Source of the DNA: Nitrospirota bacterium
Lineage (GTDB): Bacteria > Nitrospirota > 9FT-COMBO-42-15 > HDB-SIOI813
Assembly (NCBI GenBank): GCA_020851375.1
Contig: JADZCV010000045.1
Location: 128,046-192,045 of the forward strand
Direction of reading: 5' to 3'
DNA: 64,000 bases
Both the position numbers and the translations under genes were made by a program. This document shows, piece after piece, positions 27,091 to 60,087 of this stretch (within the stretch, counting starts at the first letter, position 1; each line of letters starts with the position of its first letter). Below the pieces are notes generated by a model. The model was not told where the DNA came from. It worked only from the letters and a program-made list of their open reading frames with translations, and made no database searches.

Positions 27091-27363
27091 ATGACAAAAG
27101 CAGAACTGACAGACAAGATAGCAATTTCAGCAGGTATCAGCAGGACAGCAGCATCAAACGCGCTGAACTCCATGCTTGAAAATATAACCAGGGCATTGCA
27201 GAAGGGACAAAAGGTAACTCTGCTCGGGTTCGGAACATTCTCAGTACAGCACAGGAAGGCCCGCTCCGGCAGGAATCCAAAGACTGGTGAAGAGATAAAG
27301 ATACCGGCAGGTAAATTGCCTAAGTTTACAGCCGGGACAGCCCTCAAGAATTCCCTCAAATAG
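27091..27363 (+). CDS. hup: Nucleoid protein HU/IHF family
   Basis: 90 aa with the classic HU signature GFGTF...RNPKTGEEIKIPA. Confidence 0.9.
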   Translation: MTKAELTDKIAISAGISRTAASNALNSMLENITRALQKGQKVTLLGFGTFSVQHRKARSGRNPKTGEEIKIPAGKLPKFTAGTALKNSLK

Positions 27364-27366
27364 AGA

Positions 27367-27525
27367 ACGCTGAAAAGCACCCCACTGCGGCGTCAGGAAA
27401 AAAGATTTGAACTTCAACGTACAACACAGTACGCCTCAGCTCAAATCTTATTTCCTTCCTTGCATTTGAGTACTTTTGAGCGTTCTCCCGTTGTGACGCT
27501 GAAAAGCACCCAACTGCGGCGCCGG
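27367..27525. repeat. Repeat family 1, full copy (27367-27483) plus a partial copy (27495-27525)
   Basis: ACGCTGAAAAG...CTTTTGAGCGT terminal inverted repeat, the invariant core CTTCAACGTACAACACAGTACGCCTCAG, and a copy-specific complementary inner stem. Confidence 0.6.
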
Positions 27526-27526
27526 T

Positions 27527-27715
27527 TCATGGTTCCAGGTCTAAGACAGTGTTGCAATTCATGCAGAGATATCCCTCTCCTTCAACCATACGGCATGTCT
27601 CTGAGATATACCTGATCTCATATACCATCCCGCATTTACCGCAGGTAATCTGATGCTTTAAATTAGAACCAGGGTTTCCTGTTTCCGTACCCCCTGTTTT
27701 ATCATTATCTGACAC
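27527..27715 (-). CDS. Small zinc-ribbon protein (CxxC...CxxC), GTG start
   Basis: SD GGAGG lies 5 nt before the GTG; two Cys pairs (CGKCG...CMNCN). Uncertain, because it sits between two repeat blocks. Confidence 0.4.
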   Translation of the reverse strand: MSDNDKTGGTETGNPGSNLKHQITCGKCGMVYEIRYISETCRMVEGEGYLCMNCNTVLDLEP

Positions 27716-27740
27716 GTCAACCTCCGTTTCATCTGAAATT

Positions 27741-27965
27741 CCCCGTTATTTACCACAAAGACACAAAGGACACAAAGAATTATATTTCAGATACATCATC
27801 CCAAAATGCTCCTATGTACCTGTCATTCCCACGGAACCTGTCCCCGCATGATTTAAGCGGGGAGTGGGAATCCAGAATCAAGCACTAGTTCTGGATTCCC
27901 GCTTGCGCGGGAATGACATTTTCATCGACCCTTGTGAGCCCAGGCTCATGACGGTTCACTCGATA
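27741..27965. repeat. Repeat family 2, composite hairpin array (modules D-A-B-C)
   Basis: Module D is the CACAAAG-rich segment. Module A is ATTCCCAC...GTGGGAAT with a nested TCCCCGC/GCGGGGA stem. Module B is ATTCCCGCTTGCGCGGGAAT. Module C is TGAGCCC...GGGCTCA. The array recurs at 32837-33297 and 43305-43503. Confidence 0.6.
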
Positions 27966-27986
27966 ACTCACCAGCATCCGGGCTTG

Positions 27987-29831: not shown

Positions 29832-30698
29832 ATGAAAGAAATCATAGAGTGGCTGGTACATGCTGAAGGCAGGACATGCTCTATATATAATAAGGCGGCA
29901 GATTATTTTCATGCTGATGAGGAATTCAGCGGATTCGTCAGACGGCTTGCTTATGATGAAAAGGTGCACCATGCCATAATAACTCAGGTCTATGACCTGG
30001 TGAAGGGAAGGAATAACCTGCCGTCATTGATTGCTGTAATGAGTGACACAACAAGGAACGAATTTGATGCGTGCCTGTCCGGGATTGAAAAAGGCATAGA
30101 AGCCGGAACACTGACGAGAAGTGCCCTTGCTGATCACATAATTTCCATCGAATTCTGTGAATTGAACGATGCATTTGCCTACATGTTAACAACAATGAAG
30201 GATCATGATTCACAATTCAGGACTGCAGCCATCAATATTCACAAACACAAGATGACCATTAAACAGTTTCTCAACTCTTGTAATGAATTTAAGGAACATC
30301 TTGACCGCATAACACATTTCCCTGATATATGGGAAGAAAAGATCCTGATTGTTGATGATGAACACGTTATTATTGATGTCATGCAGGCGATATTGTCAAA
30401 GGAAGGCATGATAGATACAGCTTCAAACGGCAGAAAAGCCCTGGAAAAGGTTCAGGATAAATATTATGCCGCAATTATAAGTGACATTAGTATGCCTGTT
30501 ATGGACGGTATGGATTTCTATAAGAGGGCTGTGGAGCTTTATCCATCAATAAGCAAGCGGTTCCTGTTCTTTACTGGGAGGGTGGACGAAAAGACAGAGG
30601 ATTTTTTCAGGGAGTATAATCTGTCATACCTGGAAAAGCCATCACGCCTCAAAGACATCAGGAAAAAGGTCATAGACATATTGACTGCTATACCTTGA
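29832..30698 (+). CDS. Response regulator with an N-terminal all-alpha His/Glu-rich (possibly di-iron) domain and a C-terminal receiver
   Basis: C-terminal CheY-like receiver (LIVDDEHVI...ISDISMPVMDG...EKP). The N-terminal 170 aa has no DNA-binding motif and carries His/Glu motifs (EKVHH, HDSQ, HKHK). Confidence 0.7.
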   Translation: MKEIIEWLVHAEGRTCSIYNKAADYFHADEEFSGFVRRLAYDEKVHHAIITQVYDLVKGRNNLPSLIAVMSDTTRNEFDACLSGIEKGIEAGTLTRSALADHIISIEFCELNDAFAYMLTTMKDHDSQFRTAAINIHKHKMTIKQFLNSCNEFKEHLDRITHFPDIWEEKILIVDDEHVIIDVMQAILSKEGMIDTASNGRKALEKVQDKYYAAIISDISMPVMDGMDFYKRAVELYPSISKRFLFFTGRVDEKTEDFFREYNLSYLEKPSRLKDIRKKVIDILTAIP

Positions 30699-31998
30699 CA
30701 TTCAACAGAGGTACCCCTATCTTTTGCCTCTTGTTTTCCCCTTTAAACAATTCCCCCTTTCTTGCAGGCACGTCCCCACGCTCCCCCTCATGTTGTGCAT
30801 GAATCTTTACCGGCAGGCTTGAGGCATGCTGAACCGTATGCTTGCCAAACCGTTGTGAGAGCTCATCAACAGCGCTGTATATCCTGCCCATCTTCTCTAT
30901 TCCAGGCACATCATCAAACAGGGAGTACTGGACACTGCTGACAGGGACAAGACCGGCCAGGATAACGCCTGTTGACCTGTACTGGGTACCGCTCCTGTAT
31001 ATCTCCCTGAAGCCATTCCTGAGTATGCCTGTAAGCTCTGCCGGGAATGAAGTAGGGCGGCTTAGTTTCAGATCAACCCCATTGTCCCTGAAGTCCTGCA
31101 TCCTCAGAAACAGGATTAACCCCGAAGCTGCAAGTTTATGGCGCCTTGCCTTGATGCAGGCATTCTCAAGGTTTTTAGACAACTGGGCAAATATAAAGGT
31201 CTCATCCATTGACGAAGGGGTAAAGGTCTTTGTCTTGCTGATTGATTTATAACTGCTCTTTGACTCCCGTACTACAGGATAAACGCTCCTGCCATTTAAC
31301 TCATGCCATATCTCCTGATAGGGTTTGGAGAGGTATGCCTTTATAAACTCCTCTTTGCTGCGTGCAAATTCAAGGGCCGTTACTATATTAAACTTTCCAA
31401 GAAATGCAGAGGTGTTCGGACCTATGCCCCACAGCTTTCCAACAGGCAGATCTGAAAGGTATCTGTGTATGTCACCCCCGGGAATTATTGTGATCCCGCA
31501 TGGTTTTTTATACTTTGAGGCGACCTTGGCAAGCACCTTGGTAAGGCTTACACCGATAGAGACACTTATCCCCAGCTCCTTTGCTATCGCCTCCTGCACC
31601 CGCCCTGCAATATCTGAATATGGACCGTGAAAAGTCCTCCTGAGGCCGGTAAGATCCACAAATGCCTCATCAATCGAATACTCCTCCACATCAGGTGAGA
31701 AACGCCTGAGTATCTCAAACATCCTTATGGAAAAGAGGCTGTAGGTCTCATAATCAGATGGAAGGAGTACAACATCAGGGCAGGCCTTCTTAGCCTCAAA
31801 CAGCCTCATCCCGCGTTCTATACCCCTTGCCTTTGCCTCATAGCTTGCCGCAGCAACTATACCCCGCTCCTTTCCTGTTATGACAGGCCTCCCCTGAAGC
31901 TCGGGATGTATCGCCTGCTCGCATGATGCAAAAAACGCATCCGCATCCATGTGCATTATGGCCCTCGGCCATGAGTGGATTGTAATAGGCTTATCCAT
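30688..31998 (-). CDS. dinB: Y-family DNA polymerase (DinB/Pol IV-like)
   Basis: MHMDADAFFASCE catalytic N-terminus and a little-finger domain. It is the gene after lexA. The true start may be the internal M14-M17. Confidence 0.85.
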   Translation of the reverse strand: MDKPITIHSWPRAIMHMDADAFFASCEQAIHPELQGRPVITGKERGIVAAASYEAKARGIERGMRLFEAKKACPDVVLLPSDYETYSLFSIRMFEILRRFSPDVEEYSIDEAFVDLTGLRRTFHGPYSDIAGRVQEAIAKELGISVSIGVSLTKVLAKVASKYKKPCGITIIPGGDIHRYLSDLPVGKLWGIGPNTSAFLGKFNIVTALEFARSKEEFIKAYLSKPYQEIWHELNGRSVYPVVRESKSSYKSISKTKTFTPSSMDETFIFAQLSKNLENACIKARRHKLAASGLILFLRMQDFRDNGVDLKLSRPTSFPAELTGILRNGFREIYRSGTQYRSTGVILAGLVPVSSVQYSLFDDVPGIEKMGRIYSAVDELSQRFGKHTVQHASSLPVKIHAQHEGERGDVPARKGELFKGENKRQKIGVPLLNVKV

Positions 31999-32215
31999 GC
32001 TTTGTCATTCCTGCGAAAGCAGGAATCCAGATATTGTTACTCACAAATACTTTTATACAAGTCATTCCATTGTGGGCTCTCTTTTTCAATTAATTTTAGT
32101 TTCCATATTCTTTTCCATTTCTTTATTTGTTTGCTACAAAGAATATAAACATAATAATTCTTCATTCCTTACCTCTGGATTCCCGCTTACGCGGGAATGA
32201 CAAATAATAATTCCA
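31995..32215. repeat. Two family-2 type-B hairpins in the lexA-dinB spacer (ATTCCTGCGAAAGCAGGAAT at 32010-32029; ATTCCCGCTTACGCGGGAAT at 32178-32197) flanking AT-rich DNA
   Basis: ATTCCC-N8-GGGAAT architecture. The first copy carries a compensatory C-to-T / G-to-A pair that preserves the stem. Confidence 0.5.
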
Positions 32216-32236
32216 TACAACTACACATATTATCAA

Positions 32237-32836
32237 TTATATATACTTCCTCACGACTGCCGTTACCACACCGGCAATCTTCAACTCACTCTTGGGTCTT
32301 ATAGCTTTATACTTCGGATTTGCAGGCAACAGAGAAACCGCATCCCCGCGCTTTCTCAGATACTTCATGGTCCACTCCCCGTCTACCTCAGCAATCACAA
32401 TATCACCGCTCTTTGGGGTCTGAGACCTGTCTACTATAACCATGTCACCAGGGAGTATGCCGGCCTCAACCATGGAATCACCGGACACCTTTAGCAAAAA
32501 TGTAGCCTCCCTGTTCTCTACAAGCAGGTCATCAAAAGAGAGCGTATCCGCCAGCTCTTCCTCGGCAGCGCTCGGAAAGCCGGCCTCTACAGTGCCAAGG
32601 ACCCTCGTGCCTGATACCAATGACCTCGGTATAAGCCTCCCTGTATGGTCCCTCTCTACCACCCCCATCTCTTCAAGCCTGTTTACAAACTTGAACACGG
32701 CATTCTTCGACCTCATACCGAGCATTTTCCCTATCTCAGAAAAACTCGGCATACGCCCCCGCTGCTTATAAAACCGGGCTATGGCATGAAACCGCGATTT
32801 TAATTTAGCCTCTCTGCTATGTTCCAGCTTCTTCAC
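32237..32836 (-). CDS. lexA: SOS repressor LexA (GTG start)
   Basis: N-terminal winged HTH; C-terminal S24 peptidase with the catalytic Ser (GDSM) and Lys (KYL). SD AGGAG 9 nt before the GTG. Confidence 0.85.
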   Translation of the reverse strand: MKKLEHSREAKLKSRFHAIARFYKQRGRMPSFSEIGKMLGMRSKNAVFKFVNRLEEMGVVERDHTGRLIPRSLVSGTRVLGTVEAGFPSAAEEELADTLSFDDLLVENREATFLLKVSGDSMVEAGILPGDMVIVDRSQTPKSGDIVIAEVDGEWTMKYLRKRGDAVSLLPANPKYKAIRPKSELKIAGVVTAVVRKYI

Positions 32837-33297
32837 TCGAAAATACTCCTAAGTACCCGTCATTCCCACGTAACCTGTCCCCGCAGGATTTAAGCACCCG
32901 TCATTCCCACGGAAGTGGGAATCCAGAATCAGGCCCACGGTCTGGATTCCCGCTTACGCGGGAATGACGTTTTCATGAACCCTGGTGAGCCCTGAGCTGT
33001 GAGCTTGTCGAACAGTCGAAGGGCTCATGACAGTTCACCTTAAAATCCCAGTTATTTACCACAAAGACACAAAGGACACAAAGAATTATATTCCAGATAC
33101 ATCATCCAAAAATGCTCCTATTCACCCGTCATTCCCACGTAACCTGTCCCCGCAGGATTTAAGCGGGGAGTGGGAATCCAGTATCAGGCCCACGGTCTGG
33201 ATTCCCGCTTACGCGGGAATGACGTTTTCATGAACCCTGGTGAGCCCTGAGCTGTGAGCTTGTCGAACAGTCGAAGGGCTCATGACGGTTCACCTAA
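32837..33297. repeat. Repeat family 2, tandem composite array (A-A-B-C-D-A-B-C)
   Basis: About 460 bp of nested hairpins. The sequence is near-identical to the copies at 27741-27965 and 43305-43503, including the CACAAAGACACAAAGGACACAAAGAA module. Confidence 0.65.
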
Positions 33298-33418
33298 AAA
33301 TACCACCCTCACCCGTACCCTCTCCCTGCCATCTTTATAATAGGTGAACATTCGTTTACTGTCAAGGAGAAAACTTCATTTATTGCAATAACCCGCTTTA
33401 TTAAAGTAATATGTCATC

Positions 33419-34561
33419 ATGCAAAACAACCATCGCCTGCGTGAGGTGGCATTGCTCTTTCTCAAGCTTGGCGTCACGGCGTTCGGCGGCCCGGCGGCTC
33501 ACATAGCCATGATGCGGGATGAGGTCGTAAAGCGCCGGAAATGGGTGGATGATCATCACTTTCTTGACCTGCTCGGTGCAACAAATCTTATACCGGGTCC
33601 TAATTCAACTGAGATGACAATCCACCTAGGCCTTCTCCGGGCAGGATGGAAAGGCCTTATCACAGCCGGCACATGTTTCATCCTTCCTGCCATGCTGATG
33701 GTCATGGCAATAGCATGGGCGTATGTCCGTTTTGGCGCAATGCCTGAGGTCTCCTGGCTCCTCTACGGCGTTAAACCGGTTGTCATAGCAATAATTGTAC
33801 AGGCGTTATGGGGATTGGGGCGCCGGGCCGTCAAAGGATTATTAACGGCAATTATTGGACTGACCGTTCTCATACTCTATTTCTTTGGAGTTAACGAGAT
33901 ACTCCTGCTTTTTGCCGGCGGGTTTGTTGCAATAATTGCAAATAATCTGACATGGTCACGGAAAGACAACCTCCCTGGGTTAATTGCACCTGTTGCCGGG
34001 CTCTCATTACCGGCAGCAGCATCATCTGTTGTCCCTTTCAAACTTTCACACCTCTTCCTCATATTCCTCAAGATCGGCTCAGTCTTATACGGGAGCGGCT
34101 ATGTACTGCTCGCATTTCTTCATAATGACTTTGTTTCGCGCCTCGGCTGGCTCACAGACCAGCAGTTGATTGATGCCATTGCAATCGGACAGGTAACTCC
34201 GGGACCTGTATTCACTACCGCAACATTCATAGGATATATACTTGGAGGCATCCCCGGGGCAATACTTGCCACCATCGGCATATTTCTCCCGTCATTTATC
34301 CTGGTGGCTGTTACTAACCCGCTAATCCCGCGTCTCAGACACTCTCCCCGTATAAGTGCGTTCCTGGACGGCGTAAACATCTCATCCCTTGGACTGATGG
34401 CCGCAGTAACGGTTCAGCTTAGCCAGACATCCCTCATAGACCCTCTTACAATTATAATGGCCGTCACAGCCGCCATCCTGTTGGTTTACTTTAAAGTCAA
34501 TTCAACATGGCTCATTGCCGGCGGGGCCGCGACTGGTCTTATCAAAAGTTTCCTTCTGTAA
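33419..34561 (+). CDS. chrA: Chromate transporter ChrA (CHR family, duplicated domains)
   Basis: GVTAFGGPAAHIAMMRDEVV motif and a 10-12 TM architecture. Confidence 0.9.
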   Translation: MQNNHRLREVALLFLKLGVTAFGGPAAHIAMMRDEVVKRRKWVDDHHFLDLLGATNLIPGPNSTEMTIHLGLLRAGWKGLITAGTCFILPAMLMVMAIAWAYVRFGAMPEVSWLLYGVKPVVIAIIVQALWGLGRRAVKGLLTAIIGLTVLILYFFGVNEILLLFAGGFVAIIANNLTWSRKDNLPGLIAPVAGLSLPAAASSVVPFKLSHLFLIFLKIGSVLYGSGYVLLAFLHNDFVSRLGWLTDQQLIDAIAIGQVTPGPVFTTATFIGYILGGIPGAILATIGIFLPSFILVAVTNPLIPRLRHSPRISAFLDGVNISSLGLMAAVTVQLSQTSLIDPLTIIMAVTAAILLVYFKVNSTWLIAGGAATGLIKSFLL

Positions 34562-35520: not shown

Positions 35521-36024
35521 ATGGCGTATTGCTATTTTATATCTGTGCTGTTTACCCTCATACATATAATCCATCTCCTGACCGTCATAATCTGGATCGG
35601 CGGTCTAAGCTTCATAACAATAATTGTCATCCCAATGCTTATAAAGTGGGACGCCCCCCTTCAGAAGGCCCTCACCTTTCAGAGTATTGAACACAAGTTC
35701 GCCCCTATAGCAAGGGTTTATAATCTTATAACCGGGGCAACGGGTTTCATAATGGTCTACCTCACCGGCTGGCACAAACTTTACTTTACGGCAAAAGGGC
35801 TGCCACTGCTTATTATGACTGTCATCTGGCTGATCTGGTTTGTAATGCTCTTCGGACTCGAACCGCTAATTGTAAAAAAGATGCTCGACAACATGGCAAA
35901 GAACGGTGTAAAGATGGAGATAGAGGCTGTCTTTGCAAGAATGAACCTGATGCACTGGGTCCTGCTGACTGCCTCGCTCGTGGCATCAATTGCCGGAATA
36001 GTCTTTGCCCATAGCTACTTCTAA
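35521..36024 (+). CDS. Hypothetical integral membrane protein (4-5 TM segments)
   Basis: Hydrophobic segments only; no recognisable motif. Confidence 0.4.
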   Translation: MAYCYFISVLFTLIHIIHLLTVIIWIGGLSFITIIVIPMLIKWDAPLQKALTFQSIEHKFAPIARVYNLITGATGFIMVYLTGWHKLYFTAKGLPLLIMTVIWLIWFVMLFGLEPLIVKKMLDNMAKNGVKMEIEAVFARMNLMHWVLLTASLVASIAGIVFAHSYF

Positions 36025-42371: not shown

Positions 42372-42443
42372 AGCCGGGGAAGGGAATTGAACCCTCAACC
42401 TACGCATTACGAATGCGTTGCTCTGCCATTGAGCTACCCCGGC
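42372..42443 (-). tRNA. tRNA-Thr (anticodon CGT)
   Basis: Hand-folded cloverleaf: acceptor GCCGGGG/CCCCGGC, D stem GCTC/GAGC, anticodon stem ACGCA/TGCGT with loop TTCGTAA, T arm GAGGG-TTCAATT-CCCTT. No CCA is encoded. Confidence 0.8.
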
Positions 42444-43297
42444 AAATTGTCAATTACTGCGGAGAGCAGTCTTGATGCATCTTTACTGCGCATCACTGCC
42501 ATATTAACTACATCTTCATGCCTCAGGGGAGATGCACTGATGCCGGCAGCATTATTGGCTATCATTGATATGACAAGGACCTTAATGCCAAGATACCGGG
42601 ACATTATAACCTCAGGCACTGTAGACATGCAAACTGCATCTGCACCGAGTGTGCGGAGCATCCTGATCTCTGCCGGCGTCTCGTAGGAGGGCCCTGTGAC
42701 CGCGGCAAGGGTGCCGGTGTGCAGGGTTATCCCAATATTTCCGGCAGCGGATAAGACCAACTCTGCCAGCTGCCGGTCGTAAGCCTCTGTCATATCTGTG
42801 AAACGTGTCCTGTCAGCGGCATGAGGGTTCGTCTGCAGCATTATGCTGCCCGCTGTCCTTTCTTCAAAGGGCGAAGGGGCTCTGAGTGGATTTGATCCCA
42901 TCATGTTAATATGATCTGTAACGAGCATAAAATCGCCTGGATTGAAACCGGGTCTTATGCCTCCTGCAGAATTTGTCATGATAACCTGCCTGACACCCAG
43001 CGATGAGAGCACTCTGACAGGGAAGGTGACCTCATCCATGCTGTATCCCTCATAATTGTGCACCCTTCCCTGAAGAAGTATGATCTCTTTCCCATTTTTA
43101 GAGCCATGCAGAAGGCTTCCTTTGTGACCGCTGACTGTTGATATTGGAAAATCAGGGATGTCCTGATACTTGATTTCTGACACACCGTCCAGCAGAGCGC
43201 ATGTATCCCAGCCTGAACCTGTTATAATTGCGGTTGAGGCTGAGATATTCAGTAACGCCGACTTAATGTATTTTACAGCATCATCAACTGGTCTCAT
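42434..43297 (-). CDS. Purine nucleoside phosphorylase (PNP/MTAP family, trimeric type)
   Basis: Family motifs: the GSGWD phosphate loop, SGHKGSLLHG, MTNSAGG and a VCMSTVPE-like region. The start was trimmed to MRPVDD because the upstream 33 codons are repeat-derived. Confidence 0.8.
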   Translation of the reverse strand: MRPVDDAVKYIKSALLNISASTAIITGSGWDTCALLDGVSEIKYQDIPDFPISTVSGHKGSLLHGSKNGKEIILLQGRVHNYEGYSMDEVTFPVRVLSSLGVRQVIMTNSAGGIRPGFNPGDFMLVTDHINMMGSNPLRAPSPFEERTAGSIMLQTNPHAADRTRFTDMTEAYDRQLAELVLSAAGNIGITLHTGTLAAVTGPSYETPAEIRMLRTLGADAVCMSTVPEVIMSRYLGIKVLVISMIANNAAGISASPLRHEDVVNMAVMRSKDASRLLSAVIDNLPG

Positions 43298-43304
43298 TCT
43301 TGAA

Positions 43305-43503
43305 ACCTGTTCACTCGAAAATACTCCTGAGTACCCGTCATTCCCACGGAACCTGTCCCCGCAGGATTTAAGCGGGGAGTGGGAATCCAGAACCAAGCTA
43401 CTGGTCTGGCTTCCGGCTTACGCGGGAATGACATTTTTCATGCCCCTGTGAGCCCCGAACTTTCAGCGTGCCGGACACCCGAAGGACTCATGACGGTTCA
43501 TCC
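43305..43503. repeat. Repeat family 2 copy (modules A-B-C)
   Basis: It begins with the same TTCACTCGAAAATACTCCTGAGTACCCGTCATTCCCACGG sequence that forms the lexA translation-initiation region. Confidence 0.6.
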
Positions 43504-43613
43504 GACAATGTCTGTTAATTATGCTGCCAGGATCATCTGCAAACAGCCCCTTTGTTCTGTCTGTCACAGCTCAGGGAGTATTTAGCGAATCAAGCCGGCT
43601 GCACAGGCCGTCG

Positions 43614-54348: not shown

Positions 54349-54353
54349 GCGGG

Positions 54354-54478
54354 TTGACGCTGAAAAGTGCCCATCTGCGGCGTCAGGGCATGGGAATTGA
54401 GCTTCAACGTACAACACAGTACGCCTCAGCTCAATTCCCATGCCCTTCCTTGCACCTGGACACTTTTGAGCGTCAACC
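54354..54478. repeat. Repeat family 1, full copy, ending 5 nt before the tRNA-Asp 5' end
   Basis: GTTGACGCTGAAAAG...CTTTTGAGCGTCAAC ends, the invariant core, and inner stem GGGCATGGGAATTGAG/CTCAATTCCCATGCCC. Confidence 0.6.
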
Positions 54479-54597
54479 TTGTTGTTTATGCTGAATTCTG
54501 CAAAATTACTTTATACGGCGTTGGACTCCTCAGGAAATCCTCAACGTACTATTTAGTACGCCTCCGGTTTCCTTGTCATCCACTCCTCTATAAGCAA

Positions 54598-54673: not shown

Positions 54674-54677
54674 ACAG

Positions 54678-54797
54678 TTTACGCTGAAAAATGTCCATTT
54701 GTGGCGTCAGGAAGTATCAATTGAGCTTCAACGTACAACACAGTACGCCTCAGCTCAATTGATACTTCCTTCCTTGCAACTGGACATTTTTGAGCGT
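54678..54797. repeat. Repeat family 1, full copy, starting 4 nt before the tRNA-Val 5' end
   Basis: Same ends and core as the other copies; inner stem GGAAGTATCAATTGAG/CTCAATTGATACTTCC. Confidence 0.6.
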
Positions 54798-54887
54798 AGA
54801 CTGAGTTACTTTTGCTACATTGGGTTACATCCTAACAACTTTAAAAAATATTGTCAATACGGAGTGTTCGGCTTATAATATTCCAAT

Positions 54888-59363: not shown

Positions 59364-60087
59364 CTATGTTTTCTCCTTGCCATATTCTGCAAGTTTTGTA
59401 CTTGTTGTATCACTCAAATAATACCCGCCTGTCTTTGGACTCCCTTTAAAAATAACAAGACCGGCTGATTGCATCTTTTGCATATCCCGTCTTATTGTTA
59501 CAGGAGTAACTCCGGTTCTTTCACTTAATTTTTTTGAACGGATTCCCGGATTCTGCTCAAGAATAATTATAATCTTCGACATTCTTTCCTTTACTGTATC
59601 ATTTACTGTATCACCTACTGTATCATTTACTATGTCACTTGCTGTGCCGGCTGATACAATAAGCTTTGCAAACATACTTTCATCCAATGGAATTATTATT
59701 TTGAAATAATTGCCTTCAATAAACTGGGGCTTTTTGCCAAGGGTATAAACAGGCAGGTACTTGTTAACGTTCAACACACCTGACCCAAGCTCATCCACCC
59801 GCCCAAGCTGGGTAAAGAATTTGCAAATCAATGGGTTTTTAGAAAAAGGAGTGAAGTTGTCCAGACGAATCGGACCTTCACCATTTTGAAATATTCACCA
59901 GATTGGCTTTCAATATTTCCACCTTTGAAGCATCCACACCTTTAACAGCGCCGGTATCAGCAACACCCAATAATATATCGCCCCCATCCCTGTTCAGCAT
60001 GGCACAGATGGTTTCAAAAAGGCTCTCAGGCAGTTCCGCCCTGGCCTCTTTGACCTCCAGACGGATGTTTTCACGCTGCTTGAGCAA
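59364..60087 (-). pseudogene. Disrupted AlbA_2/HATPase_c_4/HTH-type regulator (two ORF fragments of 69 and 155 aa)
   Basis: An N-terminal AlbA_2-like fragment (ELPESLFETICAMLNRDGGDILLGV) and a C-terminal fragment with a winged HTH, separated by 46 bp. The middle of the protein is missing. An internal 12-bp tandem repeat lies at 59590-59645. Confidence 0.45.

Follow-up and report, generated by a model that had tools for sequence, protein, structure and literature searches.

We analysed a 64,000-nucleotide stretch of DNA from a Nitrospirota bacterium (the window, to which all positions refer), in which the gene for the SOS regulator LexA is preceded by an array of short palindromic repeats. The lexA gene lies on the minus strand, between a divergent chromate-transporter gene (chrA) and a downstream gene for a Y-family DNA polymerase, and its product is 100% identical to the LexA of a metagenome-assembled genome (MAG) from the Nitrospirota. 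A string of 39 nucleotides (nt), CGTGGGAATGACGGGTACTTAGGAGTATTTTCGAGTGAA, covers the start of lexA on the minus strand at 32832-32870 and occurs a second time on that strand at 43310-43348, upstream of the purine nucleoside phosphorylase gene (pnp), with 38 of the 39 positions identical; shuffled sequences predict no chance matches to it. The features at lexA, and the further repeat units of the window, are the following:

32237-32836, minus strand: lexA coding sequence of 199 amino acids with a GTG start, from the list of open reading frames (ORFs); its N-terminus aligns with those of orthologs
32834-32836, minus strand: lexA GTG start, within the terminal motif of the repeat (ATTTTCGA-GTG-AA), which also ends the arrays in relatives
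32846-32850, minus strand: AGGAG Shine-Dalgarno (SD) sequence of lexA, 9 nt before the GTG, repeat-derived and absent from the empty site of the related locus L007
32832-32870, minus strand: lexA copy of the 39-nt module, found by string search
32837-33046, minus strand: repeat unit B, short form, with head hairpin, NTS hairpin (see below), inverted NTS variants and an SD-bearing tail
33047-33301, minus strand: repeat unit C, long form with a 17-codon mini-ORF module, in tandem with B at 255-nt spacing
33302-33336, minus strand: G-rich partial repeat unit directly after the -10 element, carrying an ATG at 33330-33332
33337-33365, minus strand: lexA promoter, with -35 TTGACA at 33360-33365, a 17-nt spacer and -10 TATTAT at 33337-33342
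33344-33359, no strand assigned: putative LexA operator GTGAACATTCGTTTAC in the promoter spacer, one mismatch from the clade consensus GTGAAC-N4-GTTCAC
27727-27967, minus strand: repeat unit A, long form, between ilvD and an ORF of 62 amino acids, with an NTS hairpin at 27891-27918
43310-43510, minus strand: repeat unit D, upstream of pnp, with the second copy of the module at 43310-43348

We consider it probable that the 39-nt string is the tail of a palindromic-repeat array that has entered the region between the promoter and the start codon of lexA. The near-identical modules at lexA and pnp had been noticed in a first-pass annotation made from the sequence alone. That observation stands, but the module is not an element of its own: it forms the gene-proximal tail of a mosaic composite repeat unit of about 210-255 nt, which is present four times in the window (A-D), always on the minus strand and always co-oriented with its downstream gene.

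Repeat units and the lexA start codon

Each unit starts with ATTTTnnG-RTGAAC-CGTCATGAGCC..GGGCTCAC, a small hairpin that we name the head; in the units of the arrays this hairpin reads ATTTTCAG-RTGAAC-CGTCATGAGCC..GGCTCAC. The middle holds one hairpin CGTCATTCCCGCGTAAGCGGGAATCCAG, of the scheme CGTCATTCCCGCG-loop-GCGGGAATCCAG, together with one or two inverted variants that have the stem ATTCCCAC/GTGGGAAT. The unit ends in the tail, AGGAGyATTTTnGR-RTGA, and the AGGAG is identically placed in all four copies, whose alignable core runs from ATTTTnnGRTGAAC through AGGAGyATTTTnGRRTGA. Units A and C extend about 70 nt further; this stretch holds a mini-ORF of 17 codons and, after it, the boundary motif once more. 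The tandem of B and C occupies nearly the whole gap between lexA and chrA. Up to and including GTGAA units B and D are identical, and immediately beyond it they have nothing in common, which places the end of the shared sequence exactly at the start codon of lexA. The mini-ORF (MMYLEYNSLCPLCLCGK) is cysteine-rich and lies on the minus strand at 33052-33105 and 27746-27799 with an AGGAG 9 nt before it; its DNA includes a short CTTTGTGTC tandem.

The flanks of the units are a constant direct motif, ATTTT-N3-RTGAA, and not variable target-site duplications. We found no convincing terminal inverted repeats on the units, the only candidate being a short imperfect inverted match, ACCGTCAT...ATGACGGGT. 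A search against Rfam, in which the whole window was scanned at the gathering threshold and positions 31900-33450 at E<=1, returned only tRNAs and chance-level matches to small RNAs.

Taken codon by codon in the upstream direction, the sequence before the lexA GTG is CGA TTT TAT GAG TAG, with an in-frame stop five codons up and no start between, and the first in-frame ATG downstream encodes the invariant M29, inside the DNA-binding domain. The GTG at 32834-32836 is therefore the sole possible start of lexA. It occupies the ancestral start position, 7 codons before a conserved R-E. Folding predicts the AGGAG to be mostly unpaired (probability 0.69-0.82), with a local fold not better than that of shuffles (z = -0.7). 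The first-pass annotation had proposed a hairpin directly on the lexA start region; the hairpin in fact stops upstream of the SD and none lies on the start itself, so that the repeat most plausibly provides an ordinary SD-dependent initiation site. Its statement that both the SD and the GTG are repeat sequence holds for the SD and the spacer, and the GTG does lie within the terminal motif, though at the ancestral start position. The GTG may be native or may have been brought by the element. In the relative L005 the N-terminus of LexA is 4 codons shorter and starts with the full boundary motif ttttcagGTGAAC, which favours an element-supplied start in that locus.

Derivation of the first lexA codons (MKKLEHS) from the repeat mini-ORF (MMYLEYN) was considered and rejected, since homologous codons stand there in orthologs that carry a different array or lack one. 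Several LexA entries in databases from this clade (the 239-residue P0003 and P0004-P0008, with calls of 239 and 217 residues) are over-extended into repeats or promoter.

The probable LexA operator and the proposed leaderless ancestry of lexA

The promoter at 33337-33365 is the best promoter-like site of the region, with 11 of 12 consensus positions, and its spacer contains the only window match to GTGAAC-N4-GTTCAC at one mismatch. This match lies outside the repeat; unique DNA upstream of lexA is confined to 33302-33418. Other boxes of the form GAAC-N4-GTTY or with two mismatches (13066, 19393, 35687, 41686 and 62058) were rejected as candidates, as their counts were not above those of shuffles and the one at 35687 is inside a coding region.

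The consensus itself comes from a comparison with 80 further lexA loci from metagenomes, 60 of which fit the full pattern of promoter, box and start. Among these 60 the -35 element is TTGACA in 57, the spacer of 17-18 nt contains a LexA box in every case (the exact GTGAAC....GTTCAC in 57), and the -10 is TATAAT or TATACT in 59. The start codon follows 6 nt after the -10 in 52 of the 60 and 5 or 7 nt after it in seven more. Given this uniform architecture (loci L011-L088), lexA appears to be leaderless in the 60 relatives and across this Nitrospirota order, with its promoter occluded by bound LexA. Synteny is kept as well, with chrA divergent from lexA and the polymerase gene following.

Up to the -10, the promoter regions of the window and of six close relatives (L003-L010) align in every column, and beyond it they diverge; the box of the window differs from that of the relatives by one base in one half-site. 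Additional sequence between -10 and start was found only in the closest relatives, whose lexA genes share 79-96% DNA identity among themselves. In five of them the start codon lies at the following distance from the start of the box:

L010: 126 nt
L005: 143 nt
L003: 172 nt
L009: 209 nt
L008: 224 nt

In the window the GTG is now 500 nt from the -10. A comparison of lexA upstream regions in relatives, which the first-pass annotation had called for, gave the outcome under which that annotation would have given up its regulatory idea: the close relative L007, with 85% identical lexA DNA, reads TATAAT, 10 nt, ATG, and has a canonical box, no repeat and, being leaderless, no ribosome-binding site (RBS). 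This empty site lacks ATTTTCNN, and the SD and its spacer therefore arrived with the array. The interiors of the arrays differ among L003, L005, L008, L009 and L010, which carry head hairpins, C-rich/G-rich palindromic units or NTS-type hairpins, and every lexA array ends in the same way, with an SD-like stretch, ATTT(T)CNN, RTG and AA(G/A/C).

The start codon follows the same division, being ATG in 58 of the 60 leaderless loci versus GTG in five of the six with a leader. Leaderless translation strictly requires AUG, and this requirement would have been relaxed once an SD was present, which may explain the GTG of the leadered genes. The ATG at 33330-33332, 4 nt after the -10, stands at the ancestral leaderless position and opens a 7-codon upstream ORF (uORF) on the minus strand at 33309-33332. 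An ATG beside the -10 is retained likewise in L005, L009 and L010, as though the original start had stayed with the promoter.

From these sequence comparisons we conclude that the LexA operator is very probably the conserved box at 33344-33359, of the type known as the Cheo box (the Gram-positive type, GAAC-N4-GTTC, through which lexA is autoregulated), and not a repeat hairpin. As in other Cheo boxes, the GTGAAC-N4-GTTCAC dyad overlaps the lexA promoter, and the core of the window box fits CGAACRNRYGTTYC, the Bacillus consensus as we read it. Two features set it apart: in this order the box sits within the -35/-10 spacer of a leaderless lexA, and in the window the array puts 500 nt between it and the start codon.

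A consensus scan of the minus strand from 32837 to 33336 revealed no terminator-like site and no promoter-like site other than that of lexA, so that LexA-controlled transcription through a leader of about 495 nt is the simplest reading. We propose the following course of events. The ancestral lexA would have been leaderless, with its ATG 5-7 nt after a sigma-70-type -10 and the LexA box forming the promoter spacer, and in the clade of the window arrays would have moved promoter and operator 126-500 nt upstream of the start. Transcription would still begin at the LexA-repressed promoter at 33337-33365 and cross a structured 5' untranslated region (UTR) of about 495 nt built from units C and B, and translation would then be initiated in the usual SD-dependent way, with the repeat-derived AGGAG and spacer, at a GTG in the terminal motif of the repeat. 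The level of lexA expression may be changed by such an arrangement. A non-coding repeat would thus have rewired the expression of a master regulator, from a leaderless autoregulated gene to one with a 500-nt leader, a borrowed SD and a GTG, while the operator stayed at the promoter.

Several points weigh against this proposal. An array-internal promoter missed by the simple consensus scan could bypass the LexA box. The box of the window has a mismatched half-site, GTTTAC, and its -10 is TATTAT, both of which bear on the strength of repression. The tandem interior and the copy number rest on a MAG assembly, and other assemblies break there. A neighbour-joining tree of lexA DNA, with bootstrap values below 60%, was not used to polarise gain against loss of the array, being too weakly supported to separate one gain followed by loss in L007 from repeated gains. 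The GTG at the ancestral position, together with the ATG beside the -10 in the window, L005, L009 and L010, fits either a target duplication or a start supplied by the element. Finally, some of the array tails counted at other genes (below) are false.

Arrays at other genes and their known counterparts

The window copies are also found upstream of pnp, which is not an SOS gene, and of a small zinc-ribbon-like ORF. The features at pnp are:

42434-43297, minus strand: purine nucleoside phosphorylase gene pnp (Pfam PNP_UDP_1)
43294-43314, minus strand: 6-codon uORF opened by the repeat GTG, its TGA overlapping the pnp ATG as ATGA

The pnp ATG lies 12 nt past the end of the string, with the AGGAG 26 nt upstream of that ATG, and the GTG frame closes after 6 codons, as had been annotated. 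A relative with 93% identical PNP (L113) has the same junction and uORF (L113 91-118) and a quite different array interior; the kept uORF with its ATGA overlap suggests translational coupling. No empty site for copy D was found via PNP homologs, among which the only close relative, L113, carries an array too and the rest share at most 67% identity.

A scan of species-representative genomes for the SD-bearing unit end gave no match, the exact tail variant being absent there; a scan for the head module found 23 loci among Nitrospirae MAGs, with 15 in a single genome. The arrays of these MAGs have the same head, variable palindromic units and a tail of ...GGGGATTTGAAAGGnATTTTCAG-RTG-AAA. In 17 of the 21 evaluable arrays the tail RTG is followed at 0-60 nt by the start of a co-oriented ORF with at least 80 codons, a count that includes a few false tails of the regular expression (L097, L104, L107). 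The tail RTG is itself a candidate start in up to 10 of these 17, a few of which are likewise false tails of the lenient expression. Two such cases are an oxidoreductase gene in L095 and mnmA in L091, the latter with no start codon but this RTG ahead of the conserved KKVVVGMSGGVDSS. In the remaining arrays a native SD and ATG lie within a few nucleotides of the tail. The array tail (G-rich, ATTTTCNN, RTG, AA) thus adjoins unrelated genes, among them mnmA, ispG and the oxidoreductase gene. The link between the repeats and translation initiation that the first-pass annotation drew for the SOS genes is therefore real, and it is not specific to them, extending to pnp, mnmA, ispG and others.

The arrays thus keep their junctions and exchange their interiors, and within one genome the units next to the tail are alike. 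This pattern of turnover is compatible with site-specific cassette insertion at ATTTT-N3-RTGAA or with gene conversion among arrays. In one related MAG (L104 1-400) a head module stands directly upstream of an IS110-like transposase gene, and in another (L106 3991-4100) one abuts the apparent middle of a sugar-nucleotide dehydrogenase gene.

The hairpins in the middle of the units resemble NTS, the target of the Ssn family of GIY-YIG single-stranded DNA nucleases in Neisseria, which reads CGTCATTCCCGCGMAVGCGGGAATCYRG (Chenal et al. 2025, PMC11893778). NTS and the Ssn-related motifs (SRM) are the single-stranded DNA targets of this family. NTS contains the classical dRS3 repeat ATTCCC-N8-GGGAAT and delimits the NIME mosaic arrays of Neisseria, and a layout of NTS-ssn-NTS has been described, NTS-ssnA-NTS being likened to an insertion sequence (PMC11893778). 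With the tolerance of that study, at most one mismatch to CGTCATTCCCGCGMAVGCGGGAATCYRG, three sites in the window qualify (27891, 32942 and 33197); one more has two mismatches and two have three, and shuffles expect none. The match of CGTCATTCCCGCGTAAGCGGGAATCCAG covers 27 of the 28 positions, including the oriented 5' flank CGTCA. The NTS scan and the search of the region between lexA and the polymerase gene gave the following features:

32942-32969, minus strand: NTS-type hairpin CGTCATTCCCGCGTAAGCGGGAATCCAG, one mismatch
33197-33224, minus strand: NTS-type hairpin, one mismatch
32899-32926, plus strand: inverted NTS variant with stem ATTCCCAC/GTGGGAAT
32175-32202, minus strand: NTS-type hairpin beside a decayed GIY-YIG ORF
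32037-32165, minus strand: remnant, 42 codons long, of a gene for a single-domain GIY-YIG nuclease that has lost residues about 14-65
32003-32030, plus strand: inverted NTS variant, the type-B hairpin, on the other flank of the GIY-YIG ORF

The 42-codon ORF had 665 matches at E<=1e-3 in an exhaustive HMMER search, the full-length ones being proteins of about 100 amino acids with PF01541. It had no match in Pfam, NCBIfam, a word index or a tblastn search of plasmids, and only a spurious match to PARP2 in the PDB. It aligns to one of these full-length proteins, P0148, in two segments, residues 1-13 and 66-90, and is therefore a gene with an internal deletion. With its inverted hairpins it forms a decayed NTS-GIY-YIG-NTS cassette at 32003-32202, between lexA and the polymerase gene; no intact GIY-YIG gene was found in the 64-kb window or in the fetched loci.

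Judged by sequence, the hairpins are thus most probably DNA-level repeats of the NTS/Ssn type and not LexA sites. Like the Neisseria repeats they are multi-copy, intergenic and placed inside mosaic arrays, and a small GIY-YIG remnant, putatively akin to Ssn, lies between two inverted copies. They differ in that they occur in Nitrospirota rather than Neisseriaceae and that the sole nuclease gene seen is decayed, and also in that their arrays have a constant head, a tail resembling an SD and start, and a polarity towards gene starts, which are undescribed for NTS and NIME. This would extend to the Nitrospirota a repeat system, NTS/Ssn, that was characterised in Neisseria as recently as 2025.

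Other known repeats share part of these properties. REP2 (CREN) of Neisseria and the IR-A/IR-B repeats of Borrelia contain internal stem-loops and are dispersed as copies of about 130-180 nt, and their defining property is an RBS and start codon immediately upstream of genes; they also have a promoter of their own (PMC3184786). Like these, the window units lie directly upstream of co-oriented genes and supply RBS and start, the tail RTG being the lexA start. Unlike REP2, which we compared by description only, units B and C contain no promoter-like site in a pattern scan of the minus strand from 32837 to 33336, and the units form tandem mosaic arrays with NTS-type hairpins. REP/BIME arrays and Correia-type miniature inverted-repeat transposable elements (MITEs) are likewise short, palindromic, non-coding, multi-copy, intergenic, co-transcribed and arranged in composite mosaics, and the mosaic arrays found here resemble NIME and BIME. 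In contrast to MITEs and Correia elements, the units here have no clear terminal inverted repeats or variable target-site duplication, and have constant ATTTT-N3-RTGAA ends. We therefore classify the arrays among known kinds of repeat, in a different phylum, distinguished by their constant head, their initiation-region-like tail and their polarity to gene starts.

These arrays may carry portable translation signals. In genomes that contain them, starts will be misplaced by gene callers and operators overlooked by regulon predictors, and assemblies break at the arrays.

Alternative explanations and the polymerase gene

The array could also be a site-specific mobile cassette, mobilised by NTS and an Ssn-type GIY-YIG nuclease, that targets translation initiation regions through ATTTT-N3-RTGAA and regenerates this motif with each insertion, although we regard this as unlikely. 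Arrays would then lengthen in tandem and have a start codon at their end in every case. The motif stands on both sides of every unit, in copies A-D and at 19 heads elsewhere, and between C and B in their tandem, and the empty site of L007 (TTTTATTATGA) resembles it. The exchange of interiors between kept junctions at lexA (window, L009, L010 and L003) and at pnp (window versus L113) speaks for such a process, as do the likeness of tail-proximal units within a genome, the decayed cassette in the same operon and the similarity of NTS-ssnA-NTS to an insertion sequence noted in PMC11893778. However, there is no empty/filled pair with a clean duplication, and neither an intact nuclease nor a transposase was found in the window or the fetched loci. 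The polarity could also result from selection alone, if only the SD-providing orientation is tolerated, and homogenisation could be due to gene conversion rather than transposition. It is similarly doubtful that the arrays are undescribed mobile translation-initiation cassettes that replace native signals, turning leaderless genes into SD-led ones, at dozens of genes per genome.

A second alternative is that the repeats are selected, cis-acting RNA regulators of the translation or mRNA stability of lexA and the polymerase gene, for which the following feature has to be considered:

30688-31998, minus strand: Y-family DNA polymerase gene, dinB-like (Pfam IMS, IMS_C), downstream of lexA

The type-B hairpin described in the first-pass annotation, GGATTCCTGC-TTTC-GCAGGAAT at about 32007-32031, does exist, and its 3' arm on the mRNA strand carries AGGAA (32008-32012), an SD-like sequence 9 nt before the dinB ATG that is predicted to be paired in this 8-bp hairpin (unpaired probability 0.05-0.2). 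The 5' UTR of lexA is, moreover, far more structured than shuffles (z = -5.4), and co-transcribed REP and Correia palindromes affect mRNA stability or processing elsewhere (PMC3184786). Yet tandem palindromic DNA would yield a strong z in any case, the SD of lexA is predicted to be open with the unremarkable local z given above, and the interiors differ in each close relative, with no array in L007 and no conserved structure. Neither an Rfam family match nor a leader structure shared by close relatives, in which leaders differ or are absent, marks the array as a structured cis-regulatory RNA, and selection as a riboregulator seems to us improbable. The order of lexA and dinB is conserved, while their junction is a 4-nt overlap in L008, a short spacer with GGAGG in L005 and other repeats in further relatives. 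An incidental effect of the hairpin on dinB translation is still likely; it may damp translation without being a conserved regulator.

It is highly improbable that the join of repeat and lexA is an assembly artefact or that the lexA start is mis-called. Repeats do break short-read assemblies, and two Logan contigs from other samples with identical LexA (L001 and L002) end 24 nt upstream of lexA, but both independently contain the AGGAG-spacer-GTG junction as in the window; related genomes have homologous junctions of tail and lexA, and there is no alternative start codon.

Lastly, the repeat hairpin is almost certainly not the LexA operator, as had been suggested when no other operator was located: although the hairpins do form palindromes ahead of the two SOS genes, neither they (ATTCCC-N8-GGGAAT) nor the module contain a GAAC-N4-GTTC dyad, hairpins also lie beside non-SOS genes and are absent at lexA in L007 and all more distant relatives (about 60 loci), and a canonical box is conserved in the promoter spacer of the 60 orthologous loci and present at 33344-33359.

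Directly after the lexA stop codon, at 32207-32236 on the minus strand, lies a promoter-like sequence, TTGATA-18 nt-AATTAT with an extended TG, which to judge from its sequence could drive the polymerase gene without control by LexA. Another family of dispersed repeats (TGACGCTGAAAAGCACCC...GCGGCGTCAGG) occurs beside tRNA genes at 27363-27532, 54353-54497 and 54677-54821; in the relatives L003, L007 and L010 it also fills the spacer that separates lexA from the polymerase gene. A 12-nt unit (TACTGTATCAYY) is present in three to four tandem copies at 59592-59639.

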